Shown here in pieces: positions 25,209-55,196 of a stretch of 64,000 bases of DNA. Source of the stretch: an uncultured virus (IMG/VR IMGVR_UViG_3300031963_009771) (taxonomy: Duplodnaviria > Heunggongvirae > Uroviricota > Caudoviricetes); the IMG/VR virus record IMGVR_UViG_3300031963_009771, positions 1-64,000 of that record. One strand, 5' to 3'. The translations under genes were made by a program, and so were the position numbers. Position 1 is the stretch's first letter. Each line of letters starts with the position of its first letter. The notes beneath the pieces were generated by a model, which was not told where the DNA came from, did not search any database, and saw only the letters and a program-made list of their open reading frames with translations.

Positions 25209-25493
25209 ATGGAAAATAAAATTGGATTAGTTGATGAAATATGTGCTGGAATGGCTATATTAGATTATTTTGATAATGCTATATTAGGATATGATGTTGA
25301 TTCTAAAAAAATTATATATGATTATAAATCAATGGTAGATATTCTTATAAAAGACCACCAACTTTCCGAAGAATTGGCAGTTGAATACCTTTCATACAAT
25401 GTAATAGGATTAAAAATTACAAATGACGATGGGGAAGACATATCACCGATTATTATAAGCAAATTTGAAGATGAGTTAAATGATAAACTATAA
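25209..25493 (+). CDS. Hypothetical protein
   Basis: FDNAILG...YDY...AVEYLSYNV. Confidence 0.7.
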   Translation: MENKIGLVDEICAGMAILDYFDNAILGYDVDSKKIIYDYKSMVDILIKDHQLSEELAVEYLSYNVIGLKITNDDGEDISPIIISKFEDELNDKL

Positions 25494-26538
25494 TACTTTT
25501 GCTAAGTTTATAGAATGGGATGAGTTAGATTTAGAGTATGAAAGAATAACTCAAAATATAAAAGAAATAGATGATGTTCAATCAGCATTAGATATAATTT
25601 TTAAGTATCATCGAAAAAAAGGATTTCCTCACTACCATTCAACCACCGATAATATGATTGGTGATATGAAATCTTTAAGTGAGTTTGATGAATCAACTTT
25701 ATTTAAAGATGGTTATATTGACCAAACAATGCATTGTTTAGGATTGGCATGGAGTTATTTTCCCCATTGGATAGATGTTCAATGTGGTAATAGTAAAATG
25801 AAACCAATTGATTATTGGAATGATGATAGTAAGTTCAAAGAAATTATTAGAAAGACTTGGAATTGGCATCTTAAACATAGTGATGGTAAATTTACCCTAA
25901 ATCGTTTAAGACAAAATTTCAAAATATATGGTGGCAACCAAACTGTCAGTAATTTCAGACCTTCGGCTGCTAAATGGATATATAATAACTATGGTGGGGA
26001 GACCGTGTGGGATATGAGTTGTGGATGGGGAGGTAGATTAATTGGATTCCTAACGAGTAATTGTAAAACGTATATAGGAACTGATCCTAGCGGTAAAACT
26101 TATGAGGGATTAGGTAAATTAAATAAAGACCTAAATTTTTATGGTAAAAATGTTATACTCCACCAATTAGGTTCGGAAGTATTCGTACCAGAAAAAGATT
26201 CATTAGATTTGTGTTTTACTTCACCACCTTATTTCGATACTGAAAAATATAGTGATGAGGAAACCCAATCATATAAAAAATACCCTACACCACATTTATG
26301 GGTGGATGGATTTTTAAAACAAACTATGGCAAATTGTCATATTGGCTTAAAAAGTGGGGGTAAAATGTTATTAAATATAGCAAATACTCCTAAACATAAA
26401 GATATAGAAAGTGAAACGATTAGAGTAGCGGAAGAAGAAGGATTTGTATTAGAAAAAACAATAAAACTTGCATTATCCAGTATTGCTGGGAAGGGTATAA
26501 AATACGAACCTATCTTTATTTTTAACAAAAAAAACTAA
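25480..26538 (+). CDS. SAM-dependent DNA methyltransferase-like protein (SPPY type)
   Basis: NFRPSAAK, DMSCGWGGRL, YIGTDP, FTSPPYFDTEKY, EPIF. Confidence 0.8.
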   Translation: MINYNTFAKFIEWDELDLEYERITQNIKEIDDVQSALDIIFKYHRKKGFPHYHSTTDNMIGDMKSLSEFDESTLFKDGYIDQTMHCLGLAWSYFPHWIDVQCGNSKMKPIDYWNDDSKFKEIIRKTWNWHLKHSDGKFTLNRLRQNFKIYGGNQTVSNFRPSAAKWIYNNYGGETVWDMSCGWGGRLIGFLTSNCKTYIGTDPSGKTYEGLGKLNKDLNFYGKNVILHQLGSEVFVPEKDSLDLCFTSPPYFDTEKYSDEETQSYKKYPTPHLWVDGFLKQTMANCHIGLKSGGKMLLNIANTPKHKDIESETIRVAEEEGFVLEKTIKLALSSIAGKGIKYEPIFIFNKKN

Positions 26539-33123: not shown

Positions 33124-34068
33124 ATGAGTTTTTTCGAACAACAAGAAGAACAAGTTCACTCACTTTGGGTTGAGAAATATAGACCTACAAAGTTAGATGA
33201 TTATGTAGGTAATGAAAATCTCAAAGCAAAAGTAAAGGGGTATATCGAAAGTGGTGATATACCTCACTTACTTTTCTTCGGTAAAGCGGGGACAGGTAAG
33301 ACAACACTCGCTAAACTAATCGTAAAAAATATCGAATCCGATGTAATGATTATCAACGCATCTGATGAGAACAATGTTGATACGGTTCGTAATAAAGTGA
33401 AAAACTTTGCAAGTGGAGTTGGATTCAAGCCATATAAGATTATTATATTGGATGAGTTTGATTATATGACACCTAATGCACAGGCGTTGTTAAGAAACTT
33501 AATGGAAACATTTAGTAAGCATTGTAGATTCATTTTGACGTGTAATTACATAGAGAAAATCATTCTTCCAATTCAAAGTAGATGTCAATCATTTCAAATT
33601 GTACCCCCAACAAAGAAAGATGTAGCGGTTCAAATTGCTAAAATTCTAAAAGAAGAGGATATACAATTTAATCCGGCTGATTTAGTTCCTATTGTAGATG
33701 GATATTATCCTGATATCAGAAAAATTATTAATACCTGTCAATTAGCTTGTGTTAATGGTGTTTTGAAAACTGATAGTGCTACAATAGTTGATTCTGATTT
33801 TCGTATCAAATTAGTAGAAATACTAAAATCAAAAGATGAAGTTAGGAATAAGTTTATGGTAATAAGACAATTAGTAGCTGATAATCGTATTTCAGATTTT
33901 ACTGATGTTTATTCGTTTCTATATGATAAGTTGGATGATTACGCAAAAGGAAATACTGCAAATGTTATTATTGCATTAGCGGAAGGAACATCAAAAGATG
34001 CATTAGTAGTTGATAAGGAGATTACATTTATGGCAACTATTATTTCAGTAATACAATTAGTTAAATAG
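33124..34068 (+). CDS. Clamp loader large subunit (gp44/RFC-like AAA+)
   Basis: WVEKYRP, GKAGTGKTT, INASDE, LDEFD, QSRC. Confidence 0.93.
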   Translation: MSFFEQQEEQVHSLWVEKYRPTKLDDYVGNENLKAKVKGYIESGDIPHLLFFGKAGTGKTTLAKLIVKNIESDVMIINASDENNVDTVRNKVKNFASGVGFKPYKIIILDEFDYMTPNAQALLRNLMETFSKHCRFILTCNYIEKIILPIQSRCQSFQIVPPTKKDVAVQIAKILKEEDIQFNPADLVPIVDGYYPDIRKIINTCQLACVNGVLKTDSATIVDSDFRIKLVEILKSKDEVRNKFMVIRQLVADNRISDFTDVYSFLYDKLDDYAKGNTANVIIALAEGTSKDALVVDKEITFMATIISVIQLVK

Positions 34069-34340
34069 TGAATGATTTTTTAGTTTATTTATTTGTTGTA
34101 TTTTCTCAATTAGCGTTAGCCGTATTTAAAGTTTTAGAAATAAAATGGGTAGTTGAAAATGATATAACAAAATCAGTTTTATTATTTAATATACAAACTG
34201 CCTTTTGGATTGCATCAACCGCGTATTCAGTAGATAGTTTTTTAAAGGGTGATTGGGTTACAATTATCCTATTTCTTTTATCTGGCTCTATTGGTAAGAT
34301 AATAATCCTCAAATACTTTAAGAAAAAAGAAAAGTTTTAA
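34068..34340 (+). CDS. Small membrane protein
   Basis: 90 aa with about three hydrophobic segments; GTG start. Confidence 0.6.
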   Translation: MNDFLVYLFVVFSQLALAVFKVLEIKWVVENDITKSVLLFNIQTAFWIASTAYSVDSFLKGDWVTIILFLLSGSIGKIIILKYFKKKEKF

Positions 34341-35800
34341 TGTGCGGAATAATAGGAGGTAATTGGTTTACATCAATAAAGCAAACCAAAGACCATTTAC
34401 AAAAAATAATTCATAGAGGTAGAGATGCTTCTATTGTAGATGTAATTGATGACATCTATGTAGGGCATAACCGCCTTTCAATACAAGACCTTTCCTCAAC
34501 TGCGAATCAACCAATGTGGAATGAAGATAAGACGGTTTGTATTGTATATAATGGGGAACTTTGGGATAGCGTTGAAACTAAAGAATTGAAGTCATCTCTA
34601 AAAACAAAGTTCAAAACTAAATCTGATACTGAAATAATTTTAAACGCATATTGTGAATTTGGAACTAAATCATTTGAGTTATTAGATGGTATGTTTTCAT
34701 TTGCAATAGTTGATACTAAAATAGATAAGGTATTTGTAGTTAGAGATTATGTAGGTGAACTTCCACTTTGGTATGGGATTGATAACGATGGTAAGTTAGT
34801 ATTTTGTTCCGAAAAGAAAGGCCTTCCACTTACTGATTTATATGATACACAAGTAAAGGCAATTTATCCTGGTACTTATTTAGAATATAATTACAAAACA
34901 TTAGAACATTCAGCCCAAACTTATTACAAACTTCCAACTGAAATAATAAATGATGATAGAGAAACTATTGTCAATAACATTAGAAAAATGTTAGAAGAAG
35001 CCGTAAAAGTAAAGATGGTTTCAGATGTTCCCATTTGCACAATTCTAAGCGGTGGTATTGATTCAGTAATTACAACTTATATACTTTCGCGTATTAAGCC
35101 TGACATTGAGGCATTTGTAGTTTCAATGGGAGATGGTGATACAAAGAACGATGATATAAAATATGCACGAATTGCTGCAAAAGAATTCGGTGTTAAGTTG
35201 CATGAAATTATATTGACTGAAAAAGATGTAGAAGATGCAATTGAAGAAACACTTTATGTGATTGAACAAAGTAGATGGCAAAATGTTGGTTCAGCGATTG
35301 CACAAATAGCCCTATCCAAAAAAATAAATGAGTTAGGATTTAAAGTTGTGTTTAGTGGAGACCTTTCAGATGAGATATGGGGAAGTTATGGACATATTCA
35401 GGCGTTTCATTGGAGACCGGAAGATTACGATAAGGCAAGAAGAAAGTTAGTAGAAGATGTTCATAAAACAAACTTTCTAACAACGAACCAATCTATTATG
35501 TGGGGTGGAACCGTAGAGGTTAGAACTCCTTATAGTTGGAGACCGTTTGTAGAATATACACTAAACATTCCACCCCTTTATCAAAAAGAAGGTGGACATA
35601 TGAAACCCTTATTAAGAGCAGCATTTAAGGGAGAGATTTCAGATGAACTTCTTTATAGACCTAAGGTTTACTTTGCAAAAGGCTGTAGAACCGGTGATAT
35701 GATGGAACTTCGTAAAGATACTTTGAAATCTCAATTAAAATCCTTATATTCGTATAAGAATGATATACTACTTAATAAATTTTTCTCAATAAATGGTTAG
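34340..35800 (+). CDS. Asparagine synthetase B-like glutamine-dependent amidotransferase
   Basis: N-terminal MCGI (Ntn Cys), HRGRD, GHNRLSIQD, NGELW, SDTE, LSGGIDS, SGDLSDE, EVRTPY, KPLLRAAF; C-terminal NKFF. Confidence 0.9.
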   Translation: MCGIIGGNWFTSIKQTKDHLQKIIHRGRDASIVDVIDDIYVGHNRLSIQDLSSTANQPMWNEDKTVCIVYNGELWDSVETKELKSSLKTKFKTKSDTEIILNAYCEFGTKSFELLDGMFSFAIVDTKIDKVFVVRDYVGELPLWYGIDNDGKLVFCSEKKGLPLTDLYDTQVKAIYPGTYLEYNYKTLEHSAQTYYKLPTEIINDDRETIVNNIRKMLEEAVKVKMVSDVPICTILSGGIDSVITTYILSRIKPDIEAFVVSMGDGDTKNDDIKYARIAAKEFGVKLHEIILTEKDVEDAIEETLYVIEQSRWQNVGSAIAQIALSKKINELGFKVVFSGDLSDEIWGSYGHIQAFHWRPEDYDKARRKLVEDVHKTNFLTTNQSIMWGGTVEVRTPYSWRPFVEYTLNIPPLYQKEGGHMKPLLRAAFKGEISDELLYRPKVYFAKGCRTGDMMELRKDTLKSQLKSLYSYKNDILLNKFFSING

Positions 35801-36374
35801 AATACTTAATATACAAAATGAGGGTGATGAAATGGATGCAGCCATCAGAGAAGCAATGGAAATAATTGATTTATATCCAAAAGTATTTCCCCATTTGGCT
35901 GGACAAGGATTTAAGTTGAAAAAATACTTTAATAAACCTAATGGTGGTGTAGTATTGCAAGATGGCGTAGTTATAACCTTTGAGAAAAGCAAGGGTAATT
36001 CTAAGATTGCAAGAAAGACATTTGCTAGAAAGAAAAAAGGTGATATGATTATTCACCAAATAGCATCAAAAGAAAGAAATGGTTCTGCTCAAAAAGTATT
36101 TAATCAGTTTGTAGAGTATTGTAAATCAAAGCAATGTGAAAACATTATTCTATCAGTTAGAACTGCAAACGAAACAGCTAGAAAATTTTACGAAAGAAAT
36201 GGGTTTGAATTAGTAGATGAAAATAGTGAAATGTGGCATGGTAAAAAAGAAGGATTTATTTCTGGCTCAATTTATAAGTTGAGATTACCGGCTCATAAAA
36301 ATATAGAAACCATCATTGATAATAAAAAATATAACTTTATAAGAAATGTATTTAGATTATTTCGACAAATTTAA
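35793..36374 (+). CDS. GNAT-family acyltransferase
   Basis: IHQIAS...RNGSAQ, LSVRTANETARKFYERNGF. Confidence 0.85.
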   Translation: MVRILNIQNEGDEMDAAIREAMEIIDLYPKVFPHLAGQGFKLKKYFNKPNGGVVLQDGVVITFEKSKGNSKIARKTFARKKKGDMIIHQIASKERNGSAQKVFNQFVEYCKSKQCENIILSVRTANETARKFYERNGFELVDENSEMWHGKKEGFISGSIYKLRLPAHKNIETIIDNKKYNFIRNVFRLFRQI

Positions 36375-37575
36375 GGGAATGACTCCTTACTTACACATAG
36401 GTAAAGAGGAGTGGACGTATATAAAAAATACATTCGATATTAATGATGTTAAGGAAACATTGGCCGACATTCTTATGGAATACCCAATACCTTACGCACA
36501 AATTTCTGATGCAGAAGTATTAGATGCGTATAAGAAATTAAAAGGTACATGGTGGGCTGACATTCTTAAAGAAGGAGAATGGTTTCCACGAAAAGCATCA
36601 GAAAGCAGATACCCAATAACATTTAGAGGTAAACAACAATACTTCAGTAGAAATAATGTTGGTAATGAATCCTCTAATTTTTTCCAACAGGCAAATCGTT
36701 GGAGTGTAGACGGTACCGTTTCACCTGGCCCAAAAAGAACTTGGGAAACAAGAGAGTTTATGGTTTCACTTATGGGTGGATTATATACTCTTAAATTTGA
36801 TGAGATAGATAGAAACTCTTTGAGAACTTGTTTAGGTTTAAGAAAATACATTTGTGCACAATTTAAACCTAATGTGGCAAAGGCATTATACGATTATCTT
36901 AAAGTAGAGAATGTATTAGATTTTTCAGCAGGATGGGGAGACCGTTTAGCGGGATTCTATGCAAGTGAAACCGGAAAGCATTATGTAGGCGTAGACCCTA
37001 GAAAAGAAAATCACCCGATATATCGTCAGCAAGCAGATTGGTATGAAAAACACCGAACATTTTTTGAAATAGAAAAGAAAGCAGATTTTCATTGCTCACC
37101 TGCCGAAGATTTAGATTTTTCACAATATACCGACCATTTTGATATAGTATTTACATCACCTCCTTACTTTAATGTTGAGAGGTATTCTTATGATGATACT
37201 CAAAGTTGGGTAAGATATAAATCTATTGATGCATGGAATGAACAATTTTTACATAAAGTAATTCATAACTTATGGCCAACTATTCGTAAAGGAGGTTATT
37301 TGGCAGTGAACATTGCAGATGTTTATGCTAAATCAAATGATAGAGAAAAGGGTTATGTTGAAATTACAAACCCAATGAATGATTATATCCAAACATTAGG
37401 TGCGGAATACGAAGGATGTTTGGGCATGGAGATGGCAAAGAGACCTGGTTCAGCAGGAGCGGGGGCAATTATTGAAGGTGATGAAGACCGTTATACCGAA
37501 GAGGCATTAGAAAAAGCAAAGGAAGCGGAAGGTAAAAGATTTTGTGAACCTATTTGGATATGGAGAAAACTATAA
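36346..37575 (+). CDS. SAM-dependent DNA methyltransferase-like protein, paralog 1
   Basis: QFKPNVAK, LDFSAGWGDRL, YVGVDP, FTSPPYFN, EPIWIW. Confidence 0.82.
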   Translation: MYLDYFDKFKGMTPYLHIGKEEWTYIKNTFDINDVKETLADILMEYPIPYAQISDAEVLDAYKKLKGTWWADILKEGEWFPRKASESRYPITFRGKQQYFSRNNVGNESSNFFQQANRWSVDGTVSPGPKRTWETREFMVSLMGGLYTLKFDEIDRNSLRTCLGLRKYICAQFKPNVAKALYDYLKVENVLDFSAGWGDRLAGFYASETGKHYVGVDPRKENHPIYRQQADWYEKHRTFFEIEKKADFHCSPAEDLDFSQYTDHFDIVFTSPPYFNVERYSYDDTQSWVRYKSIDAWNEQFLHKVIHNLWPTIRKGGYLAVNIADVYAKSNDREKGYVEITNPMNDYIQTLGAEYEGCLGMEMAKRPGSAGAGAIIEGDEDRYTEEALEKAKEAEGKRFCEPIWIWRKL

Positions 37576-38783
37576 AAGAATACTTTAGTAAGTTTTATGA
37601 TATGAAACCATACCTCACTATTGATGAGGAGGAGTGGGCATATATTTTAAAAACTTATGATAAAGAAGAAATTATAGAAACCCTATCAGAAGTCTGTCAT
37701 ACATATCCATTACCTATACCGGTTTATACTAATGAAGAGGTATTAGAAGATTACAAAAAATTAAAAGGAACTTGGTGGCCTGATATATTGATTGAAGGTA
37801 ATTGGTTTCCTCGTAATGGTAGAGAGAGTAAATACCCACTTACATTTGATGGTAAGTTTATGTATTTCAAAAAGTATACCGTTGGTAATAAAGCATCCAA
37901 TAAATTCCACGTAGAGAACCGATATAAAGTTGATTGGGTAAGAGGCCCATCCGGTTGGAGAACGTGGCAGACAGTTGAAGGAATAAAGACCATTGTAAGA
38001 GCATTCTTTACATTAGATAAGGTTTTAACTGATGTAAGCATTAATACCTTAAAGATGGCGATGAATTTGAGAAAATATGTAGCATCTCAATTCAAACCAA
38101 ATGTTGCAAAAGCACTTTACGATTATTTTAAATCCGAATACATTTTAGATTTTTCGGCAGGATGGGGTGATAGATTTGCAGGATTTTATGCGGGTGATAA
38201 TACTAAACATTATGTTGGTATAGACCCGAACTTAAATAATCATCAACACTATCTTTTGCAAGAAGAATACTATAAGTTTAATCAAACATTTTTTGAGAGT
38301 GAAAAAAGAGCTACATTTATTCCACAACCGGCGGAAGATGTAGATTATTCGGAATATGAAAATTATTTTGATACAATTTTTACTTCACCACCTTACTTCA
38401 ATACTGAAAGGTATTCAGATCACGATACTCAATCTTATTTGAGATATAAAAAAATAGATGATTGGAATACTAATTTTTTACATAAGGCATTAGAGAAAAT
38501 GATTCCGACTTTGAAGAAGGGTGGAATCTTAGCCGTAAACATTTCAGATGTGTTTTCTGCACCTGATGGTGGGTATGTAGATATAACCAACGCTATGAAT
38601 GATTTCCTCCATTCTAGGGGGTTAAAATATAGAGGGTGTATTGGCATGGAAATGACGAAAAGACCCAACAGCGGAGGTGCTGGAACTGCCGTAAGTGATT
38701 ATTATTCAGATGATTCAAAGAAGCAAGCGGAAGAAGGAAAAAATCAAGCATTTGGAGAACCAATATGGATATGGGAAAAATAG
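37560..38783 (+). CDS. SAM-dependent DNA methyltransferase-like protein, paralog 2
   Basis: Colinear with preceding gene: QFKPNVAK, LDFSAGWGDRF, FTSPPYFN, EPIWIW. Confidence 0.82.
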   Translation: MEKTIKEYFSKFYDMKPYLTIDEEEWAYILKTYDKEEIIETLSEVCHTYPLPIPVYTNEEVLEDYKKLKGTWWPDILIEGNWFPRNGRESKYPLTFDGKFMYFKKYTVGNKASNKFHVENRYKVDWVRGPSGWRTWQTVEGIKTIVRAFFTLDKVLTDVSINTLKMAMNLRKYVASQFKPNVAKALYDYFKSEYILDFSAGWGDRFAGFYAGDNTKHYVGIDPNLNNHQHYLLQEEYYKFNQTFFESEKRATFIPQPAEDVDYSEYENYFDTIFTSPPYFNTERYSDHDTQSYLRYKKIDDWNTNFLHKALEKMIPTLKKGGILAVNISDVFSAPDGGYVDITNAMNDFLHSRGLKYRGCIGMEMTKRPNSGGAGTAVSDYYSDDSKKQAEEGKNQAFGEPIWIWEK

Positions 38784-39667
38784 ATAAAGTTATATTATGG
38801 GGTTGTTCTATCAGTTATGGATTAAATGCTGATAAGGATAAAATCTATGGGCAAAGAATTGCTGATTGGTTAGGAGTTCCACTAATTAACCTATCAATTA
38901 GTGGTGCAGGTAATATAGTAGGGAGTAATACTCTAATGAATAAACCAATAGAATTTTATAAGAATAGTTTGGTATTATTTCAGACTACATATTTCGAAAG
39001 ACAAATAGATAAAGACCTTATTCCTAATCCTTTTTATGGTAATAGATTTTTTAAAGAAGTAAACTCTAATAGCTTTAGGGTTGATGATTTTAGAGAAGAG
39101 TATGGGGAAAAGGAAGAGATTTTAAGAATAGATGATTGGGTAGGTTATTGGACTGAATACGAAAATTTCTACAATAGAAAGTATTGGCATTACAAAAAAG
39201 ATTTTGACCACACAAAATGGGTTGATTATCTAAAAGAGTTATTTAAACAAAACAGTTATTCGATTTATTTAGTTCACAAATGGTTTGAAAAAAATGAGAT
39301 AGAACACTTATTCTTTGATATACCAATTCCTATTATGGGATATAAACTAAATTACAAAGATTATTATGTAGGGAATTCTACATTTTTCGCTAAATCGATG
39401 GTAAGATTTTTGACAGAGGAAAGTGAAATTAAAAATTGCTTTTATAACACTTTTAAAGATGAAAACTTTTTCTTCATCGATGAGATAGATGAAAAAAATA
39501 AAATAACTGATGTTCTAATTGAACCATTATATAGTGGTAATGATACAACTATATGGAAAGAATGGTTAATGCCGGATAGACCTTATGGAACTCCCGATCC
39601 GTGTCATCCTAATGAAAATGGACACGAAAAAATATTTGAAGTATTAAAAAGAAACATTAAAAAATAA
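38765..39667 (+). CDS. SGNH-hydrolase-like protein
   Basis: LWGCSIS, NLSISGAGN, FQTTYFER, HPNENGH. Confidence 0.65.
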   Translation: MDMGKIDKVILWGCSISYGLNADKDKIYGQRIADWLGVPLINLSISGAGNIVGSNTLMNKPIEFYKNSLVLFQTTYFERQIDKDLIPNPFYGNRFFKEVNSNSFRVDDFREEYGEKEEILRIDDWVGYWTEYENFYNRKYWHYKKDFDHTKWVDYLKELFKQNSYSIYLVHKWFEKNEIEHLFFDIPIPIMGYKLNYKDYYVGNSTFFAKSMVRFLTEESEIKNCFYNTFKDENFFFIDEIDEKNKITDVLIEPLYSGNDTTIWKEWLMPDRPYGTPDPCHPNENGHEKIFEVLKRNIKK

Positions 39668-39678
39668 AAACAAAAACT

Positions 39679-39993
39679 ATGGCACAAATTTTAGGAAACC
39701 AACAATTACCACCTCAGCCAAAAATAGATTGGTCACAGGCACAGGATTTTAATTGTTCAAATTGTGGAGGTGAGTATTTTATCTCCGCAGCTATTATTAA
39801 GAAATTTTCAAAATTGGTAACCGGGACAACAAAAGATGCGGTATTACCATTTGATATATTGATATGCGGAAGTTGTGGAAAGCCCGTTGATGAGTTGATA
39901 CCCGCAGAACTTAGAAAACCAAAACAAGAAAAGCAAGAAGTTAAGACACCTCCTCCACAAGAACCTCAAAGTAATTTAACATTAGAATTGTAG
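39679..39993 (+). CDS. Zinc-ribbon protein
   Basis: CSNCG...CGSCG. Confidence 0.7.
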   Translation: MAQILGNQQLPPQPKIDWSQAQDFNCSNCGGEYFISAAIIKKFSKLVTGTTKDAVLPFDILICGSCGKPVDELIPAELRKPKQEKQEVKTPPPQEPQSNLTLEL

Positions 39994-39999
39994 TAGAGT

Positions 40000-40572
40000 A
40001 TGAAAGTATTATTTGTTTGTGCATTAAAAGAAGAATCAGATGGATATGATACTTTGTTTGATTATCCGATTATTCATACTGGCGTTGGAAAGATAAACGC
40101 TGGATATAAAACGGCTATGGGCATATTGGAACACAAACCTGATTTAGTTTGTAATTTTGGTAGCTGTGGGAGTTTTAGTATGGATAAGGGTATGTTATTA
40201 AAGGTTAAAGATGTATATAATGGTGATATGGATGCAGAACCATTAGTTCCCTATTCTATCACCCCTTTCGACCAGGATGGGGATTATTTAGAGATTGAAA
40301 ATGAAGGAGTTAGCTGCTTCACATCCGAAACCTTTATTACGAAGGAAAAGGTTAAAAACTTTCCCCCTAAAAAGTTGGAATTGTTAAATAAATGTAGTAT
40401 ATTTGAAATGGAATTATACTCAATTACGAGAGTTTGCAAAGAGTTCAAAATACCGATAGTTTCTTACAAATGGGTAAGTGATGATGGTGGGATGGATGAT
40501 TGGGAAAAAAACTGCAGAATTGGGTATTCTCAATTTAAATTAGAATTTTATAACAAATATATTGCTGGATAA
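40000..40572 (+). CDS. MTA/SAH nucleosidase-like protein (PNP/UDP family)
   Basis: ALKEE, TGVGKINA, NFGSCG, FEMELY, KWVSD. Confidence 0.85.
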   Translation: MKVLFVCALKEESDGYDTLFDYPIIHTGVGKINAGYKTAMGILEHKPDLVCNFGSCGSFSMDKGMLLKVKDVYNGDMDAEPLVPYSITPFDQDGDYLEIENEGVSCFTSETFITKEKVKNFPPKKLELLNKCSIFEMELYSITRVCKEFKIPIVSYKWVSDDGGMDDWEKNCRIGYSQFKLEFYNKYIAG

Positions 40573-41030
40573 TGGCTAAAACGCTTTTCGACCATCTTAA
40601 CGCTATAACAAAAGACCAAGATCCTAATTACTTCGATAAATTATCCGAAGAAGATTTAAAGACTTGGAGTAATTATATGATTCATAGATTTCTTTCTATG
40701 AACTATGATTTTGTAGAAACCATTGCCCAATTTCAACCATTAACTCAAACAATGGAGCCTAAACTTTACTATCTTTTTATGATAGGAGTTTTACCGAAAG
40801 GAAAGCAATACCTTCGTTATATTAAGGGAAAGAGTGAGGAATCTGCTAATGAAAAATTAGTAGAATTGATTATGGTAGAATACAATTGTTCAAAAAATAC
40901 AGCAATTGATTACTACAACATTCTCACTCATATCAAAGAAGGTGATGAATACTTCACTTACTTAAAAACAAAGTATGGAGAAGTAGAAAAAGAAAAAAAA
41001 TCTACAAAAACTAAAACCAAAAAGAAATAA
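40572..41030 (+). CDS. Clamp loader small subunit (gp62-like)
   Basis: LFDHLNAIT, YMIHRFLSM, LPKGKQYLRYIK. Confidence 0.75.
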   Translation: MAKTLFDHLNAITKDQDPNYFDKLSEEDLKTWSNYMIHRFLSMNYDFVETIAQFQPLTQTMEPKLYYLFMIGVLPKGKQYLRYIKGKSEESANEKLVELIMVEYNCSKNTAIDYYNILTHIKEGDEYFTYLKTKYGEVEKEKKSTKTKTKKK

Positions 41031-42468: not shown

Positions 42469-43854
42469 ATGAATAATAAAAAAACAATTCTTCTTCTATC
42501 AGATGATTTAAGAATGCATAGTGGTATAGCTACTATGTCAAAAGAAATAGTTTTAGGTTCCGTAAGCAAATACAATTGGATTCAGGTTGCAGCAGCCGTT
42601 CAACATCCCGAAGTTGGGAAAATAATTGATGTATCCGATGATGTAAAAAAGCATAGTGGTGTTGAAGATGCTAGTGTAATACTTTATCCTAATAGTGGAT
42701 ATGGTAATGCGGATTTAATTAGAAACCTATTATCTAAACACAAAATAGATGCTATCCTACATTTTACCGACCCTCGTTATTGGATTTGGTTGTATGATAT
42801 GGAGCATGAAATTCGACAAACTTGTCCAATTTTCTTCTACCATATTTGGGATGATTTGCCAGATCCACACTACAATAGAGATTACTATGAAAGTTGTGAT
42901 TGGTTGGGTTGTATCTCTAAGCAAACTTATGGCATTGTTAAAAGAACCGGTGCATTACAAAATGGGAAAACTTGGAAGCCGTTGGAAGATTGGCAAGTAA
43001 GTTATGTTCCACATGGTGTATCAAAATTGTATAAACCATTAGAAGATAGTAGTGATGAGTTGAAACAAAAACTATTTGCAGGTAATGATTACGAATTCGT
43101 AGTTTATTGGTCAAATAGAAACATTCGTAGAAAACAACCATCAGATGTTATTTGGGCATTCCAAAAGTTTTTAGATAAATTACCGGAGGAAAAGAGAAAG
43201 AAGGTGATGTTATTGATGCATACACAGCCGGTCGATGAAAATGGAACTGATTTAGTTGCCGTTGCAAAAAGATTAGCACCTGATGCAGAAATTAAATTTT
43301 CAACGAATAGATTATCTACCGAACAAATAAATCAATTACTAAATCTTTGTGATGTATCGGTGAACATTGCCGGTAATGAAGGATTTGGCCTAACGACTTG
43401 TGAAGGTATAATGGCAGGTGTTCCATCTATCTTATTAGTGACAGGTGGTTTGCAAGACCAATGTGGATTTAAATTGGATGGAAAGTTATTAACCGCAGAA
43501 GATTATGTTAAGATTGGTTCTTTGCATGATTGGAGAGAATGGGAAGATAAAGTAGAGCATGGAGAATGGGTTAAGCCATTGTGGGCAAGGGCTCAAAATA
43601 TGAACGGTTCAGTTCCAACTCCTTACATCATAGATGATAAAATAGATGTATATGAATTAGCAGATGCATTTAAGTATTGGTATGACATTCCGAAAGAAAA
43701 AAGGAAAGAAATGGGATTAAAAGGTAGAGAGTTCATCCTTTCAGAAAACGGATTCTATTCACAAAGAATGGCGGATGAAATGGTTAAAGGGATGGAAAGG
43801 GCCTTTGAAAATTGGAAACCAAAAGAAAGATTTGAATTATATAAAATAAAATAA
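42469..43854 (+). CDS. Glycosyltransferase (GT-B, family 4-like)
   Basis: SDDLRMHSG, PHG, NRNIRRK, NEGFGL, TGGLQDQ. Confidence 0.85.
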   Translation: MNNKKTILLLSDDLRMHSGIATMSKEIVLGSVSKYNWIQVAAAVQHPEVGKIIDVSDDVKKHSGVEDASVILYPNSGYGNADLIRNLLSKHKIDAILHFTDPRYWIWLYDMEHEIRQTCPIFFYHIWDDLPDPHYNRDYYESCDWLGCISKQTYGIVKRTGALQNGKTWKPLEDWQVSYVPHGVSKLYKPLEDSSDELKQKLFAGNDYEFVVYWSNRNIRRKQPSDVIWAFQKFLDKLPEEKRKKVMLLMHTQPVDENGTDLVAVAKRLAPDAEIKFSTNRLSTEQINQLLNLCDVSVNIAGNEGFGLTTCEGIMAGVPSILLVTGGLQDQCGFKLDGKLLTAEDYVKIGSLHDWREWEDKVEHGEWVKPLWARAQNMNGSVPTPYIIDDKIDVYELADAFKYWYDIPKEKRKEMGLKGREFILSENGFYSQRMADEMVKGMERAFENWKPKERFELYKIK

Positions 43855-43861
43855 GTTACGA

Positions 43862-45097
43862 ATGGCTAAACCATTTTTATTATATCAAGCTCCAATAGCG
43901 ACTAGGAGTGGATATGGAGATCATGCAAGAGATTTACTCAAATCATTTAGAGATTTAGATTATTATGACATTAAGATTGTTTCAACGAGATGGGGAGCAA
44001 CCCCTATGGATCAACTTAATCCAAACGATGAATTTCATAAATGGATACTAGATAATATTGTTGGTGAAATAAATATACAACCTGATGTATATGTTCAGAT
44101 GACAGTTCCAAATGAATTTCAACAAGTAGGAAAATTTAATATAGGGGTTACCGCTGGAATTGAAACGACTGTAATACCGAAGGATTGGGTTGATGGGTGT
44201 AACCGAATGGATTTGGTTATTACAACTTCACAGCATTCTAAATCAGGTATAGCTGGGACACAATGGACAGAAAGGGATAAAACCACTCAACAGGTAATAA
44301 CCGAACATAGAGTTTCAAAGCCGGTAGAAGTTTTATTTGAAGGAACTGATTACAAAGAGTTAGATGGTTTGGATAAATTAGATTCTATTAAAGAAAACTT
44401 TTGTTTCTTATTCGTAGGCCATTGGTTACAAGGAAATCTTTATCATGATAGAAAAGATGTAGGCGGAATGATTCAAACATTTCTTTCTGCATTTAGTAGA
44501 ACGAAGGGTGAGAAACCTGCCCTAATACTCAAAACCTCATCAGCGGGATTTTCAATTAGAGATAGAGAAGAAATTCTCCGAAAAGTTGAAGAGGTAGCAT
44601 CTCAGGTTAAGAGTGATGTTTCAATTTATCTTATACATGGTGATTTAACACCTGATGATATGTGGAAGTTATATAATCATCCAAAAGTAAAAGCGACTAT
44701 CTCATTTACACATGGTGAAGGATTTGGAAGACCTCTATTAGAATTTAGTATGACAGGAAAACCAGTAATAAGTAGTGGTTGGAGTGGTCAATTAGATTTT
44801 CTAAATGATAAACAATCAGTATTATTAGATGGTGAATTAAAAAATGTAGACCCATCAGCTTCAAATCAATTTTTATTACCTGAATCACAATGGTTTTATG
44901 TAAATTATAGTAATGCGGCTTTCAAATTAATTGATGTGTTTAATAATTATGATAAATACCTCTCCGAATCTAAAAAATTAGGTAGGGATAATATAAATAA
45001 GTTTTCACATAATAAAATGACAGAGGCCCTAAAAGGTATTTGTGATAGACATATAAAGGTTGCAAAGCATGTTGATTTAATACTACCAGAATTCTAA
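43862..45097 (+). CDS. Glycosyltransferase (GT-B, family 4-like)
   Basis: SGYG, RKD, HGEGFGRPLLEF, WSGQLDF. Confidence 0.85.
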   Translation: MAKPFLLYQAPIATRSGYGDHARDLLKSFRDLDYYDIKIVSTRWGATPMDQLNPNDEFHKWILDNIVGEINIQPDVYVQMTVPNEFQQVGKFNIGVTAGIETTVIPKDWVDGCNRMDLVITTSQHSKSGIAGTQWTERDKTTQQVITEHRVSKPVEVLFEGTDYKELDGLDKLDSIKENFCFLFVGHWLQGNLYHDRKDVGGMIQTFLSAFSRTKGEKPALILKTSSAGFSIRDREEILRKVEEVASQVKSDVSIYLIHGDLTPDDMWKLYNHPKVKATISFTHGEGFGRPLLEFSMTGKPVISSGWSGQLDFLNDKQSVLLDGELKNVDPSASNQFLLPESQWFYVNYSNAAFKLIDVFNNYDKYLSESKKLGRDNINKFSHNKMTEALKGICDRHIKVAKHVDLILPEF

Positions 45098-45100
45098 AAA

Positions 45101-45790
45101 ATGGCAGAATCTAGGATATATCTACCTCTATGGGGAAAATTGTTTAAGACAAGTAGAAAGGTTTCGACAACTATTATGAAACCTGGTAATTTTTACAAAA
45201 TACAAGTTTATAAATATGCGGACCCATCTCAAACAAAAGTTTTGGCAGGATTAGATACTACTTACATTTTTTTAATAGGAAAATTTAGAGGTAAAGATGA
45301 AAAAGGTATGATTCATTACTATTTTCCTGCACTAAAATTAAAGCATGTAAATCCTCGTAATTTCTTTTATGCATTAGAAGCGGCTACTGATTCAATTAGT
45401 GAACAAAAAATTGATGAAGCAGAAGAGTTTAGATTTCTTTTAAGACAATTTCCATTAGATGGTAAACCTCTATTTACAATCTTAAAAAAGAAACCTTTAA
45501 TATACGATGGTAATTATAGAGAATACAAAATGGCTTCAATAAGATCAGTTGAAGAAGTTGAATTAACTAAGTCTTATATAAAATCAAAAATGATTAGAGG
45601 TTATACTAATAAAGAGAAAATTGATGAGGAGAAGAAATTAGAAAAACCTAAACAAACTCCACAGGAGTTAAAAAAGGAAGAGAAGGTCGAAAAGATAATA
45701 AAACAAAAAGAAATTAATTTAGAACCACCGCCTGAGAGTATTGCGGAAAAAATAGAAGTAATTAATCAGACATCACAACCAAACACATAG
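45101..45790 (+). CDS. Hypothetical protein
   Basis: 229-aa ORF; PGNFY, YREY; charged C-terminal tail. Confidence 0.65.
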   Translation: MAESRIYLPLWGKLFKTSRKVSTTIMKPGNFYKIQVYKYADPSQTKVLAGLDTTYIFLIGKFRGKDEKGMIHYYFPALKLKHVNPRNFFYALEAATDSISEQKIDEAEEFRFLLRQFPLDGKPLFTILKKKPLIYDGNYREYKMASIRSVEEVELTKSYIKSKMIRGYTNKEKIDEEKKLEKPKQTPQELKKEEKVEKIIKQKEINLEPPPESIAEKIEVINQTSQPNT

Positions 45791-45792
45791 TT

Positions 45793-46251
45793 ATGACATC
45801 TAAAGAATTTGTCCTTTGGTTAAAAGGATTTACCGAAGGAGTGCATGAATTTAATGTTACTCCGAAACAATGGGATTTATTAAAAGATAAATTGAAAGAA
45901 GTAAGTGATGAACCGAAAATAGGAACTCCAATTGGAGAAGGTGGATGGGGAACGCCCAATACAACACCTGTATGGCAACATCCACATTATGTAGACCCAT
46001 ACCACCCATATAGGATAACGTGTCAACCGGATACAAATGGTACAACACTAACATCATCTGGTAGTGGTGGAACTATTGTAGCTACGCCTGGATATGGTTC
46101 TATTACATACTCTAATCCACCATTTGGATTTGGAAGTACATCAACTGCATATGGTTATCCGAGTGGTAGTGCTTGGAGTTATACAAATTCAACAAATAAT
46201 AAGCCGGTTCAATCGGAAGAACATTCTGAAAAACACCACAACGAAGATTAA
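45793..46251 (+). CDS. Hypothetical protein with G/S/T/P/Y-rich low-complexity C-terminus
   Basis: MTSKEFVLWLKGF N-terminal domain. Confidence 0.65.
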   Translation: MTSKEFVLWLKGFTEGVHEFNVTPKQWDLLKDKLKEVSDEPKIGTPIGEGGWGTPNTTPVWQHPHYVDPYHPYRITCQPDTNGTTLTSSGSGGTIVATPGYGSITYSNPPFGFGSTSTAYGYPSGSAWSYTNSTNNKPVQSEEHSEKHHNED

Positions 46252-46253
46252 GT

Positions 46254-46877
46254 ATGAAAATAAGTTACGCTATAACTGTTTGTAATGAGTTAAAAGAACT
46301 CACCTCATTAATTAACTTTCTCCTCGTGCGTATAGATAGCGAGGATGAGGTTGTTATTCAATATGATAGTGAATCAGTTACAAAAGAAGTTGTGGATTAT
46401 CTCAATATAATTAGTGATATACAAAAACAAATTAAGATTATATCATTTCCTCTTAATAAAGATTTTGCATCCTTTAAAAATAATCTAAAAGAACATTGTG
46501 AAGGAAAATACATTTTTCAAATTGATGCAGATGAAGAACCATCGGAAATTTTATTAGAGAGATTAAAACAAATTCTGACTATAAATGAAGTTGATATAAT
46601 TTTTGTTCCAAGAGTGAATACCGTAGAAGGATTAACTCAATCACATATTCAAAAATGGGGTTGGAAAGTTGATGATAAAGGTTGGGTAAATTGGCCTGAT
46701 TATCAAACTCGTATTTACAAAAATACCGAAGAAGTTCAATGGCATGGAAAAGTGCATGAAAGAATAACCGGATACACAACTTTTACAAATTTCCCATCAG
46801 ATGAAAATTACTCACTATATCATCACAAGGAAATAGAAAGACAAGAAAAACAAAACGATTTTTACGATAAAATTTAA
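46254..46877 (+). CDS. Glycosyltransferase family 2-like
   Basis: ISYAITVCNE, FQIDADE, WPDYQTR, VHE. Confidence 0.85.
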   Translation: MKISYAITVCNELKELTSLINFLLVRIDSEDEVVIQYDSESVTKEVVDYLNIISDIQKQIKIISFPLNKDFASFKNNLKEHCEGKYIFQIDADEEPSEILLERLKQILTINEVDIIFVPRVNTVEGLTQSHIQKWGWKVDDKGWVNWPDYQTRIYKNTEEVQWHGKVHERITGYTTFTNFPSDENYSLYHHKEIERQEKQNDFYDKI

Positions 46878-46881
46878 TAAT

Positions 46882-47565
46882 ATGAAAAAAGAAATTCTAA
46901 TTGTAGTCCCATCTAGAAGTGGTGATAGCAAAAGATTCCCTAATGTAGATAGGTTTATAGAAAATTGGAAGGAAAATACCGAAGGGTTTAGTGATTTATG
47001 TATAGCATTAGATGATGATGATTCACATCAGTATCCAATTAGAGACGGTGTTATATACGAAATTAATCCACGTATTAGAATGATTCCAACACTTAATCAA
47101 ATTGCTTTGAAATATGCCAACCAGTATAAATGTATAGCATTTTTTGGAGATGACCATATTATTAAAACAAAATGGGAATCAAAATTTTTACAATTTTTTG
47201 AAGAAAATAATAATATAGGAATAGCTTACGGTAATGATTTGTTACAAGGAGCTAAACTACCTACCGCAGTTTGCCTAACATCTAACATAATTAATCAATT
47301 AGGATTTATGGTGCCGAATTTTCTGATTCATATGTATGCAGATAATTTCTGGTTAGATTTGGGTAATAGTTGCCAAATTATAAAATATTTTGATGATGTT
47401 GTATTTGAACATATTCATCCTGATAATGGTAAAGCGGAAAGAGATTCACAGTATGTTGATGCGGCTTCGGTGGCATATATTGACCAACAAAAATATATGG
47501 ATTATAGAAGAGGATTTGATTTCTTAAATGATGTAAATAAAATTAAAGATTTAATTGAAGAATAA
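46882..47565 (+). CDS. GT-A fold glycosyltransferase-like
   Basis: VVPSR, FFGDD, HMYADN, EHIHP. Confidence 0.7.
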   Translation: MKKEILIVVPSRSGDSKRFPNVDRFIENWKENTEGFSDLCIALDDDDSHQYPIRDGVIYEINPRIRMIPTLNQIALKYANQYKCIAFFGDDHIIKTKWESKFLQFFEENNNIGIAYGNDLLQGAKLPTAVCLTSNIINQLGFMVPNFLIHMYADNFWLDLGNSCQIIKYFDDVVFEHIHPDNGKAERDSQYVDAASVAYIDQQKYMDYRRGFDFLNDVNKIKDLIEE

Positions 47566-48200
47566 TGGGATACTCGCAACACAATGAAGATGAATTAATC
47601 TTATCACACTTAAAGGAATTTAATTTAGAAAGAGGCGGAACGTTTTTAGATGTTGGTGCAAATGATGGTGTAACATATTCAAATTCAAGATTATTTATTC
47701 AGAATTACGAGTGGGAAGCGGTGTTGATAGAGCCTACTACCGATTGTGTTAATAAATTAAATGAATTGTATAAAGAAAATGATAAAGTAACTATATTCGA
47801 TTATGCAATAGATTTAGAAGAGGGTGAGAAGGAAATTTATTTAGGTTCTCTGCATAATGAAGGTGTTAATCAAATTTCTACATTAAACCATATTGATAAA
47901 AATTATTGGGAAACGAATAGAGGTGTTCGTTATAATAGTGAAATAATTAAAACTACTACTCTTTCAAACATTCTTAAAAAAGTAAAATATAAGGATTTTG
48001 ATATAGCAAGTATAGATGTTGAAGGGAATGATTTAATAGTTTTGAATCAGATGATAGATGAAAATATATTCCCAAAGTTTATCATATTTGAATATAATGG
48101 TAATACCCCTATTTTACAAAACGCTATAAATTCACTAAATCAAAAATATGATATAATATTTGATAACCTGATAAATGTAATTTTTAAATTAAATTTATGA
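47565..48200 (+). CDS. FkbM-family methyltransferase
   Basis: YSQ, FLDVGANDG..SNS, LIEP, SIDVEG. Confidence 0.88.
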   Translation: MGYSQHNEDELILSHLKEFNLERGGTFLDVGANDGVTYSNSRLFIQNYEWEAVLIEPTTDCVNKLNELYKENDKVTIFDYAIDLEEGEKEIYLGSLHNEGVNQISTLNHIDKNYWETNRGVRYNSEIIKTTTLSNILKKVKYKDFDIASIDVEGNDLIVLNQMIDENIFPKFIIFEYNGNTPILQNAINSLNQKYDIIFDNLINVIFKLNL

Positions 48201-49069
48201 AAGTTTTATTGAGTTGTTTAAATGTAAATGGATTAGGGGGAAGTGAATTATATCATTATGAATTAGCCAGAGAATTAAATCTATTAGGAATCGATGTAAC
48301 CCTTTTTACTTTAAGAGACATTGATAGGGGTGATTTAGTAAGAAGAAAATTAGAGGAGAATAATGTTAAACAATGCGACTTACATAATATAGATGTAAAT
48401 CAAAATTACGATTTAATAGTAGCAAGCCAGCCAGAGGTAAACCAATTTATATTAAAATACTTTAATAATAATATACCGAAAATAAGCATTATACATTCGG
48501 AAATAAGAAGTGAAACTCCTATTTTGAATAAAGGAATAAATCACTATATCGCTATAAGAGAGCCAATTAAAAAATCATTAATAGATAATTATAAAATTAA
48601 TCCAACTGATATATCACTAATTTATAATCCCATAGATAGAGATAGGTTTAATGATAAAGATAAATCAAAGTATAGTAAGAAAACAGGAATATTTGTTGGA
48701 GAAGTTTTAGATAATATAAGATTTAAAGCAGTCTCCCATTTAGTAAAAAACTGTATAGATAAAGATTGGGATTTATATTTGATGAGCGAAAGCAAATATA
48801 ATTTTAACCACCCCAACATCAAATACATAGATAAAAGATGGGATACTGAAAACGTAGTAAAAAATATGGATTTTACTGCGGGAATTCTTTTAGGGAGAAC
48901 AACATTAGAAGGTTGGTGTTGTGGAGTAAATGGGTATATGTATATTATTAATCAAAATGGTGACATTGTTTCAATTGATATAAATAAACCTGAAAACATA
49001 GAAGAACTATGTGATTCAAAAAATGTAGCAAAACAGCACATTGAATTATACAATAAAATAATACGATGA
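48197..49069 (+). CDS. Glycosyltransferase (GT-B)-like
   Basis: GLGGSELY, IYNPID, GRTTLEG. Confidence 0.7.
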   Translation: MKVLLSCLNVNGLGGSELYHYELARELNLLGIDVTLFTLRDIDRGDLVRRKLEENNVKQCDLHNIDVNQNYDLIVASQPEVNQFILKYFNNNIPKISIIHSEIRSETPILNKGINHYIAIREPIKKSLIDNYKINPTDISLIYNPIDRDRFNDKDKSKYSKKTGIFVGEVLDNIRFKAVSHLVKNCIDKDWDLYLMSESKYNFNHPNIKYIDKRWDTENVVKNMDFTAGILLGRTTLEGWCCGVNGYMYIINQNGDIVSIDINKPENIEELCDSKNVAKQHIELYNKIIR

Positions 49070-49941
49070 AAATATTAATAACTGGACATTTAGGATTTGT
49101 AGGAAGGTCTTTTTTAAAATACTTTGGTGATAAAAATGAAATTATAGGAGTAGATTTAAAAGAAGGAAATGATTGTAGAGATTATTTTAAACAATCTTCT
49201 GAGGTCTTTGATTTAATCATACATTTGGCTGCAATTGTAGGTGGAAGAGAAACAATTGAAAAAGAACCATTATCAGTTGCTACCGATTTATCAATTGATT
49301 CGGAATTTTTCAATTGGGTGATTAAAACAAAACAAAAGAGAGTTGTATATTTTAGTAGTAGCGCGGCATATCCAACATATTTGCAACATCCAGATTCTAA
49401 ATATAGATTAAAAGAAAGCGATATTAATTTAGATGATATAAGATTACCTGATTACACTTATGGTTGGTCTAAATTAACAGGTGAATACTTGGCAAAATTC
49501 GTTAAAGAAAGTGGAACTAAAGTTTATGTATTCAGACCATTTAGTGGATATGGCGAGGATCAAGATTTAACATATCCATTCCCCTCATTTATTGATAGAA
49601 TTAAAAGAAAGGTTGATGAATTTGAAATATGGGGTGATGGAACGCAAGTAAGAGATTTTATTCATATGGATGATATAGTGGAGGCAGTTATGACAGTTGT
49701 TGATAATGATGTTGAATTAGATGCCTTAAATTTAGGGTGTGGTATTGCAACTCCTTTTAATGAATTGGCAAAAACGATGTTTCAAATAAGTGGCCATACT
49801 CCATCAAAAGGAATAAAGCATTTATTAGAAAAACCGATTGGAGTATCTTATAGAGTTTGTGACCCAACATTATTTAATTCAATCTACAAACCAAAATATA
49901 CTTTGGAAGAAAGAATTGAAATAATACTAAATAAAAAGTAA
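49066..49941 (+). CDS. NAD-dependent nucleotide-sugar epimerase/dehydratase
   Basis: ITGHLGFVG, HLAA, SSSAAY, YGWSK, WGDGTQVRDFIH. Confidence 0.92.
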   Translation: MKILITGHLGFVGRSFLKYFGDKNEIIGVDLKEGNDCRDYFKQSSEVFDLIIHLAAIVGGRETIEKEPLSVATDLSIDSEFFNWVIKTKQKRVVYFSSSAAYPTYLQHPDSKYRLKESDINLDDIRLPDYTYGWSKLTGEYLAKFVKESGTKVYVFRPFSGYGEDQDLTYPFPSFIDRIKRKVDEFEIWGDGTQVRDFIHMDDIVEAVMTVVDNDVELDALNLGCGIATPFNELAKTMFQISGHTPSKGIKHLLEKPIGVSYRVCDPTLFNSIYKPKYTLEERIEIILNKK

Positions 49942-49943
49942 TT

Positions 49944-54672: not shown

Positions 54673-55196
54673 TGATAGCAAGAAGTTTATTTGTAGAAGA
54701 CAAAAAGTTAAGAGTATTTGATTTTGATGATACCCTCGTCAAAACATCTTCCTATATCTATATCACACATAAAGATGGTAAGAAATCTAAATTAACACCT
54801 GGACAATACGCAGTATATAAAGAAAAGCCGGGAGATGAGTTTGATTTTAGAGATTTCGAAAAAGTAAAAAATCCAATTAAAATTAAAGCCTATTTTGAAT
54901 TATTAAGAAGAATGGTAAGAGATTCTTCAAGAGCGGTTTATATCCTTACTGCTCGTGCGGCCTATAAACCCGTATATGATTTTATTAAGGATAGTGGTAT
55001 TAAGGATGTGTTTGTAGTAGCATTAGGTGATAATAATCCTGAAACAAAAGCGGATTGGATTGAAAGGGAAATAAAAAATCACGGATATGATAATGTTTAT
55101 TTCGTAGATGATTCTTCTAAAAATGTTGATGCAGTAAGAAGAAGATTAAACAAGTATCCCAATATTAGAAAAAAGATTCAATTGGTTCAAGGATGA
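54672..55196 (+). CDS. HAD-superfamily phosphatase
   Basis: FDFDDTL, ILTAR, K, FVDDS..N. Confidence 0.85.
   Translation: MIARSLFVEDKKLRVFDFDDTLVKTSSYIYITHKDGKKSKLTPGQYAVYKEKPGDEFDFRDFEKVKNPIKIKAYFELLRRMVRDSSRAVYILTARAAYKPVYDFIKDSGIKDVFVVALGDNNPETKADWIEREIKNHGYDNVYFVDDSSKNVDAVRRRLNKYPNIRKKIQLVQG

Follow-up and report, generated by a model that had tools for sequence, protein, structure and literature searches.

A phage cassette in which an AsnB-GNAT pair alternates with a PLP decarboxylase homolog beside a methylase-like gene: a probable tailoring module for DNA hypermodification

In the thymidine hypermodification pathways of phages M6, ViI and PaMx11, an amino-acid handle on the base is finished interchangeably by a fold-type II pyridoxal-phosphate (PLP) decarboxylase or by a GNAT acetyltransferase: M6 gp52 decarboxylates amino-acid:base conjugates in DNA and requires a free alpha-amine, and PaMx11 gp48 is a GNAT that acetylates a base-linked amine (PMC8989533). 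In Synechococcus phage S-B43, the methyltransferase homolog CmoX installs a carboxylate handle derived from S-adenosylmethionine (SAM), which the asparagine-synthetase homolog CmoY amidates (PMC12783734). Here we describe a gene cassette from an uncultured virus of the class Caudoviricetes (IMG/VR record IMGVR_UViG_3300031963_009771) that would work like the M6 and CmoXY systems and is a member of neither. The window analysed is the first 64 kb (64,000 nucleotides) of this 73-kb record, which is about 38% complete; it carries T4-like tail genes together with recombination and replication genes, and its relatives measure 209-289 kb. An AsnB-like amidotransferase and a GNAT precede a methylase-like protein, here called MT1, and in close relatives a single PLP enzyme gene replaces the first two. 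The cassette very probably has some role on DNA bases, as a tailoring module for hypermodification. Its core features are:

34340..35800, + strand: AsnB-family glutamine amidotransferase (N-terminal Cys glutaminase plus ATP-dependent amide synthetase), 486 aa; core
35793..36374, + strand: GNAT acetyltransferase; core, not Mom
34332..36345, + strand: exchangeable segment; one 255-aa PLP enzyme gene instead in close relatives
36346..37575, + strand: MT1, 409 aa, class I SAM-binding, amino-methyltransferase-like; constant gene of the slot

The likeness to M6, ViI and PaMx11 lies in the interchangeable finishing enzymes, and gp52 has a homolog in the PLP enzyme that relatives of the window carry. 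Unlike in those phages, no amino-acid:DNA transferase (ADDT) was found here (aGPT-Pplase2 in 0/5 and 0/2 related records, with the M6 control at E = 2e-48), the complete related genome G001 has an ordinary thymidylate synthase, the constant gene encodes a SAM-binding methylase-like protein, and an AsnB-type amidotransferase takes part. As in S-B43, an asparagine-synthetase homolog adjoins a transferase-type gene; unlike S-B43, CmoA (TIGR00740) was found in none of eight related records, five of them complete, the S-B43 and TurkishDelight controls being detected and the window's own record being only 38% complete. A C5-methylase (PF00145) was absent from all four related records searched, with the control detected in 9 of 14, and the cassette enzymes read SPPY instead of SPPC. 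CmoY of S-B43, at 271 aa, is a synthetase only, whereas the AsnB of the window has a glutaminase domain and a GNAT partner. Searches of three complete relatives revealed none of the known handle-makers (CmoA, C5-methylase, ADDT, Mom), with the positive controls detected, and none was seen among the 167 of 291 G001 open reading frames (ORFs) scanned with Pfam; those left out of the scan were short, very long, crossing locus borders or clear homologs of known genes. Membership in the Mom, CmoA/CmoX or ADDT systems was rejected on such grounds, the respective markers not being found in the related records searched.

An initial annotation, made from the sequence alone, had drawn a five-gene operon of AsnB, GNAT, twin SPPY methyltransferases and a nucleosidase for 5'-methylthioadenosine (MTA) or S-adenosylhomocysteine (SAH), overlapping or abutting within a replisome block. 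All of the ORFs it named lie on the + strand, in that order and where it had placed them; from 33124 to 41030, 7 of the 9 junctions overlap and the remaining two gaps are 6 and 11 bases, and the flanks are indeed an AAA+ clamp-loader large subunit (33124) and Phage_clamp_A (40572). Its gene list omitted two ORFs within the interval (300 aa and 104 aa) and a 90-aa ORF just upstream.

Linkage was counted in related phages. A first scan, with AsnB as the query, found homologs 75-100% identical to it in 41 viral loci, with GNAT as the next gene in 41/41 and at least three gene orders. With identical copies merged and later scans added, 30 distinct close AsnB homologs have at least 5 kb of sequence downstream; GNAT is directly downstream in all 30, and an MT1-class gene lies within 6 kb in 28, directly behind GNAT in 22. 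In the reverse view, AsnB stands directly upstream of 49 of 51 distinct GNAT homologs. The AsnB-GNAT linkage is beyond chance, and from these counts AsnB-GNAT-MT1 is the core. A lack of conserved linkage would speak against the initial annotation; it was looked for, and the linkage holds among relatives. The five-gene operon does not, since two MT1-class genes occur in only 9 of the 30 close homologs and the nucleosidase with the 300-aa ORF in only 6, counts by which a second methylase is not required and the nucleosidase does not belong to the core. In G001, the nucleosidase homolog is about 67 kb away from the cassette. Across a wider set of 56 distinct AsnB loci, a methylase-family gene is found within 7.5 kb in 52, GNAT in 31, a PLP enzyme in 22, both of the latter in none and neither in 3. 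Conservation of AsnB often exceeds that of the replisome, as would be the case for a module that is exchanged (for example, 88-90% identity against 56-59% for PolB in L007 and L015).

The exchange is exact. In six contigs of the window's lineage, a single 255-aa PLP gene occupies precisely the place of AsnB and GNAT, beside MT1. The PLP-type relatives, found by an MT1-centred scan, keep the gene order of the window, with 88-92% identity in the clamp loader and 84-92% in MT1. Using blastn, DNA homology in 3/3 PLP-type loci stops at 34331/34332 and restarts at 36344/36346, the start of MT1, and is unbroken in the control L034. The same alternation recurs in a slot beside thioredoxin and an HD gene (L471 and L482 vs. 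L093, L096 and L100) and in a thioredoxin slot (L464 vs. L027), and the slot is empty in relatives L230 and L235. For stand-alone PLP loci, we took the best 80 of 170 matches, which reduce to 55 distinct loci, 24 of them with 3 kb on both sides; AsnB or GNAT is present in 0/55, and a methylase-family gene in 22 of the 24 wide loci. Whole records agree: the PLP gene is in 0/3 complete GNAT-type records and GNAT in 0/4 PLP-type records. A gp52-type PLP decarboxylase was not found in the window or in three complete GNAT-type relatives, and in other relatives it occupies the same slot. Of five records with MT1 only, 0/5 had a PLP gene at another place, these records being 27-42% complete. The PLP profile missed two divergent PLP genes (L267:6408 and L269:2932), so the sole MT1 locus scored as having a hydroxylase only is one with hydroxylase plus PLP enzyme.

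The alignment between the PLP enzyme and M6 gp52 spans both proteins from end to end (24% identity, E = 9e-15). The best cultured matches of the PLP enzyme, at 42%, are 812-aa ParB-methylase proteins of Erythrobacter phages R6L (gp1) and ZS04 (L538:2326-4764), in which the order is ParB, methylase motif I, PLP domain, methylase motif IV. Pseudanabaena phage Pam4 encodes the same ParB-methylase-PLP fusion (Pam4_70, matched over 97% of its length), and PLP and methylase genes are adjacent in Mae-JY30 and in mycobacteriophage AlanGrant. The ZS04/R6L/Pam4 fusion is a cultured, minimal test case for the chemistry proposed below.

MT1 has motif I DFSAGWGDR ahead of motif IV SPPY, with an N-terminal extension of about 170 aa. 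It has the fold features of the N4-cytosine/N6-adenine DNA methyltransferases (class I SAM fold, motif I, PPY motif IV), and Atlas clusters of its kind carry PF01555. A fold search returned the general class I fold only, the best match being an O-methyltransferase at Z 15.3. MT1 matched 3382 protein clusters, and members of the family were seen in at least 599 viral stretches, with up to three or four per genome. The family carries an invariant Arg near the SAM site: eight residues past the motif-I Asp, it is present in 247/247 family sequences read with W-G and in 0/8 ordinary beta-class methylases of the same loci (counted by pattern reading; three further rows were pattern mis-hits). This Arg, and an E-x-Y after PPY, are common to MT1 and the ParB-fused phage methylases. 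Two AsnB-GNAT genomes also have CPPY methylases with an Erythrobacter-type DPFAGxxxR motif (L065:13157-14491, in G001, and L115:5085-6008), which make a second candidate for the handle-installer.

The AsnB-like protein has the hallmarks of the broad AsnB family: an MCG start, SGGIDS and SGDLSDE motifs, GATase_6/7 and Asn_synthase domains, and a TIGR01536 score of 288 bits against a cut-off of 267. Its best solved relative is E. coli AsnB (E = 1e-87), but it falls short of the asnB equivalog PRK09431 (289 vs. 499) and of the NAGGN model (181 vs. 570). In a profile search of 1.84 billion representatives, a separate set of top-scoring sequences stood above the generic AsnBs. A quick tree (79 rows) groups AsnBs of the window type with two other phage types (SH-like approximate likelihood ratio test, SH-aLRT, 99) and apart from E. 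coli AsnB (100), and makes a fourth phage type sister to glutaminase-bearing enzymes encoded between CmoX and CmoA homologs (95); the window AsnB thus lies in another clade than these CmoY-type enzymes. In the same tree, S-B43 CmoY forms a long branch without a settled position, and only 19% of the columns are filled in two of the outgroup rows. No homolog above 35% identity to the window AsnB was present among the 80 GTDB loci listed, and scanning with the alignment of a second sub-clade (A5) gave no viral loci. The best cultured match is TurkishDelight gp124 (30%), which has a C5-methylase on one side and a CmoA homolog on the other; it may correspond to A0A7T0Q3R0 of PMC12783734, for which four supplement files gave no match. 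Clusters resembling TurkishDelight gp123-125, with CmoX, a glutaminase-bearing AsnB and CmoA, were seen in Nonomuraea, Streptosporangium, Streptomyces and a Gemmataceae bin (L297-L305 and L307). The initial annotation had taken SGDLSDE, in place of the usual motif, as a sign of a different substrate. The motif is fixed in 59/59 close homologs, but same-clade sister members read GEGSDE, GEGADE, GDVSDE or GELSDE, so it is a lineage marker only.

Other AsnB-bearing cassettes were seen alongside. At L120:5155-9336 and L145:6335-8467, a sister cassette combines a thymidylate-synthase-fold protein (RSNR...GYAD), AsnB and a PLP enzyme, with the first two joined in one protein in L145. The AsnB of this cassette is a sister of the CmoY-type enzymes, and the cassette is possibly a separate pyrimidine modification. 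At L091:2953-7172 and in L118, L142 and L238, a PLP enzyme, a 2-hydroxyacid dehydrogenase and AsnB accompany a 366-451 aa protein that ends in an Asp-beta-hydroxylase domain; the dehydrogenase is fused to AsnB in P0295, and mycobacteriophage LilMcDreamy has a protein similar to the hydroxylase-ending one in its ParB cluster (L215:2656-3759). Near sister cassettes are also an ABC-ATPase-GNAT fusion (L137:1016-2188) and a true Mom homolog (L145:1539-2339), indicating that the slot collects several DNA-modifying systems.

The GNAT has a weak Pfam match (Acetyltransf_1, E = 6e-6), and its AlphaFold model (predicted local distance difference test, pLDDT, 88) has a GNAT fold, with 474 PDB matches at E <= 0.001 and GNAT acetyltransferases among the matches listed; the best structural matches are protein and polyamine acetyltransferases. 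It had no match among cultured phages. A comparison with the N-terminal part of the hydroxylase fusions using hhalign gave 0.1% with one sequence and 4.8% (E = 0.008) with seven, a hint that was not used. The initial annotation had likened this protein to phage Mu Mom, and the two do share a GNAT fold in a phage DNA-modification setting. The analogy goes no further: the Mom profile PF25680 matched neither the window GNAT nor any of five related records (the control L145:1539-2339 was found at E = 7e-53), and Mom acts alone with Gly-tRNA (PMC13219725), unlike a GNAT that stands behind AsnB almost throughout.

The replacement of AsnB and GNAT by an amino-acid decarboxylase suggests that the "methylase" puts an amino-acid side chain on DNA bases. 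A PLP decarboxylase needs an alpha-amino acid, AsnB a carboxylate and GNAT an amine, so if all of them act on the product of the SAM-dependent enzyme, a 3-amino-3-carboxypropyl (acp) group would suit. Methyl offers neither amine nor carboxylate and carboxymethyl no amine, whereas acp would bring both from one cofactor and is therefore favoured. Given the observed families, folds, linkage, exact swap, PLP homology and PLP-methylase fusions, the reactions, target base and order of steps are predicted as follows. The pathway would be post-replicative and probably sequence-specific. MT1 would move the acp arm of SAM, rather than the methyl, to the exocyclic amine of A or C with release of MTA; the AsnB-like enzyme would adenylate the side-chain carboxylate and amidate it with ammonia from glutamine; and the GNAT would acetylate the free alpha-amine, giving a neutral adduct with a calculated mass of +142.07 Da. 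In PLP-type relatives, decarboxylation would turn this handle into aminopropyl (+57.06 Da, calculated). The likely purpose would be restriction escape. We consider acp transfer by MT1, followed by amidation and acetylation or by decarboxylation, the leading chemistry, with the chances evenly balanced as to whether it is right. Base modification instead of amino-acid metabolism, with amidation of a carboxylate, is the part of the initial annotation that this proposal keeps.

Acp transferases of RNA include TYW2/Taw2, Tsr3 and TapT, whose substrates are tRNA or rRNA. TYW2 transfers acp with a class I methyltransferase fold, and the carboxyl and the amine of the wybutosine side chain both receive caps afterwards (TYW4); a class I fold followed by capping of both groups is what we propose for the cassette. 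To our knowledge, acp transfer is otherwise known only for proteins. For MT1, nothing found in sequence or structure points specifically to these RNA enzymes. Neither the cassette nor acp on phage DNA was described in the literature searched, which did not extend to subscription journals, bioRxiv supplements or the 2013 survey of Iyer et al., which may already note a methylase-PLP link; the available part of PMC7824862 covers methylases, Mom and a GNAT-ABC system and not this cassette. A broader proposal, just short of an even prospect in our judgement, is that MT1 and the ParB-fused family (R6L, Pam4, AlanGrant) are widespread acp transferases that place a SAM-derived amino-acid handle on DNA, and that a mix-and-match kit (PLP decarboxylase, AsnB plus GNAT, dehydrogenase, beta-hydroxylase) yields several undescribed bases. 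If so, many phage genes filed as DNA methylases would install a bifunctional amino-acid handle, a further hypermodification route would stand beside hydroxymethyl-pyrimidine, deazaguanine, Mom and carboxymethyl chemistry, and DNA could be tagged with an amine or carboxylate from plain SAM.

Several observations weigh against acp transfer by MT1, and some of them fit an arrangement in which AsnB plus GNAT, or the PLP enzyme, tailor a modified base while MT1 is an ordinary methylase in a shared DNA-modification island, the handle coming from an unrecognised enzyme or being made at the nucleotide level. TYW2 (3a27) ranks only 29th in the MT1 fold search, among tied methyltransferases (Z 13.2, root-mean-square deviation 4.1, 196 aligned). 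MT1-class genes stand without a tailoring neighbour in 16 of 40 wide loci, and unrelated genes also use the slot as an insertion hotspot. MT1 and the fused methylases are only distantly related (hhalign 80%, E = 1.3e-5, 63 columns), and tblastn with MT1 did not find the fused proteins. Because the phages are related, the mutual exclusion of AsnB plus GNAT and PLP enzyme rests on few independent events. In other lineages, AsnB and a PLP enzyme occur together, in 22 of the 56 loci, which add either the thymidylate-synthase-fold protein or the 2-hydroxyacid dehydrogenase and Asp-beta-hydroxylase-like protein; a simple either/or on one carboxylate fails to explain these, and in these loci the PLP enzyme must have a different adduct as its substrate or catalyse a different reaction. 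Restriction-type palindromes are still strongly avoided in the window (observed/expected 0.14 for GATC, 0.24 for GTAC, 0.25 for CTAG, 0.26 for GCGC and 0.29 for CATG; 0.03 for GATC in G001), so protection is not blanket, and a motif-limited mark is the most that fits. The ordinary-methylase arrangement also draws on the several MT1-family members per genome, on the frequent position of the cassette behind ribonucleotide reductase, thioredoxin and HD hydrolase genes, on the sister lineage that fuses a thymidylate-synthase-fold protein to AsnB, and on the many G001 ORFs (most of the 167 scanned) that have no Pfam family. We nevertheless hold it to be unlikely, as small cultured phages have a PLP domain set into a methylase domain that is related, ADDT, CmoA and Mom were not found in complete relatives, and G001 has an ordinary thymidylate synthase and dUTPase, with its HD gene far from the cassette.

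One version of the chemistry in the initial annotation, with MT1 as an N4/N6 carboxymethyl transferase using host carboxy-SAM, AsnB yielding a Mom-like carbamoylmethyl base and GNAT having a target of its own, has a precedent in CmoX/CmoY, including an uncharacterised glutaminase-bearing ligase cluster, and in CmoX an Arg binds the carboxymethyl group (PMC12783734), which recalls the invariant Arg of MT1; the setting of TurkishDelight gp124 beside a CmoA homolog points the same way. It is nonetheless the least probable of the readings weighed here, and we regard it as very doubtful: CmoA was in none of the eight related records, the window AsnB is outside the CmoY-type clade, a carboxymethyl gives no amine to GNAT or to the PLP enzyme that replaces AsnB and GNAT, and the search reported in PMC12783734 found no N4/N6 carboxymethyl transferase with CmoA. 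Auxiliary metabolism placed in the replication block by chance (making asparagine or a small solute that is an N-acetylated amide, or amidating and acetylating sugars or proteins) seems improbable to us. The TIGR01536 score, the closeness of E. coli AsnB among solved structures, the many glycosyltransferases from 42469 on, the many metabolic genes of G001 and the structural matches of the GNAT would agree with it; against it are the scores below the asnB equivalog and NAGGN cut-offs, the position outside the E. coli AsnB clade and the lack of close homologs among the GTDB loci listed. Moreover, AsnB and GNAT keep company with the methylase instead of the glycosyltransferases, what replaces them is homologous to an enzyme that acts on DNA, and clade or sister members of AsnB are fused to a thymidylate-synthase fold.

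Further features of the interval and its surroundings are:

34068..34340, + strand: hydrophobic ORF of 90 aa; borders the exchangeable slot on its upstream side
37554..38783, + strand: MT2, 409 aa, tandem paralog of MT1; accessory
38765..39667, + strand: 300-aa protein; outside the core, present in PLP-type relatives too
39679..39993, + strand: 104-aa CxxC-CxxC protein; after the clamp-loader large subunit in most relatives, part of the replication block and not of the cassette
40000..40572, + strand: MTA/SAH nucleosidase-like protein; accessory
25480..26538, + strand: third member of the MT1 methylase-like family (GWGGR...SPPY), 9 kb upstream

MT1 and MT2 (36346-37575 and 37554-38783) are 52-53% identical, both with SPPY. 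In run X11, one contig omits 1235 bases within 37170-38406, about one methylase copy; its short side is 23 letters at depth 2.6, and it may be from another organism. The family member at 25480..26538 may be a handle-installing copy or an ordinary methylating one, and adjoins an ordinary beta-class DPPY methylase (24035-25195). The nucleosidase-like protein matches PNP_UDP_1 (E = 3.5e-9, 36.9 vs. a cut-off of 25.1) and passes none of seven NCBIfam nucleosidase models. It carries ALKEE, GVGKINA, EME and SDD, which we take to be the functional motifs of such enzymes, and would clear MTA or SAH alike. In another lineage, a family methylase of 505-543 aa and a PLP gene are immediately preceded by a nucleosidase homolog (27-35%) (L470, L472, L484, L486, L496, L497 and eight more), so a nucleosidase joined the MT1 family on two occasions. 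The 300-aa protein is presumably SGNH-hydrolase-like, judging from its GCSISYG, GAGN and DPCHP motifs, and has no Pfam match. Three more window proteins share its GxS...HP motifs (20892-21602, 59483-60220 and 61555-62364), making up a multi-copy family without a Pfam match.

Elsewhere in the window, a protein with Nucleotide-modification-associated domain 1 (DUF1599, under the cut-off) is encoded at 17603-18417, overlapping a dCMP deaminase, and two 2-oxoglutarate oxygenases at 10855-11637 and 55193-55891. A block of glycosyltransferases with an FkbM methyltransferase and an epimerase (42469-51104) does not travel with the AsnB cassette. The AdoMet-decarboxylase homolog at 60382-60780 could supply decarboxylated SAM, yet phage homologs are reported to act on ornithine or arginine. 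In three RNA runs, contigs cover scattered pieces of the window at depth 2-4 (18, 9 and 7 of 30 bins), a pattern that shows neither transcription nor an operon. The window is nearly whole in 14 DNA runs labelled freshwater, riverine, lake, wastewater, estuary or aquatic, any of which is a possible source.

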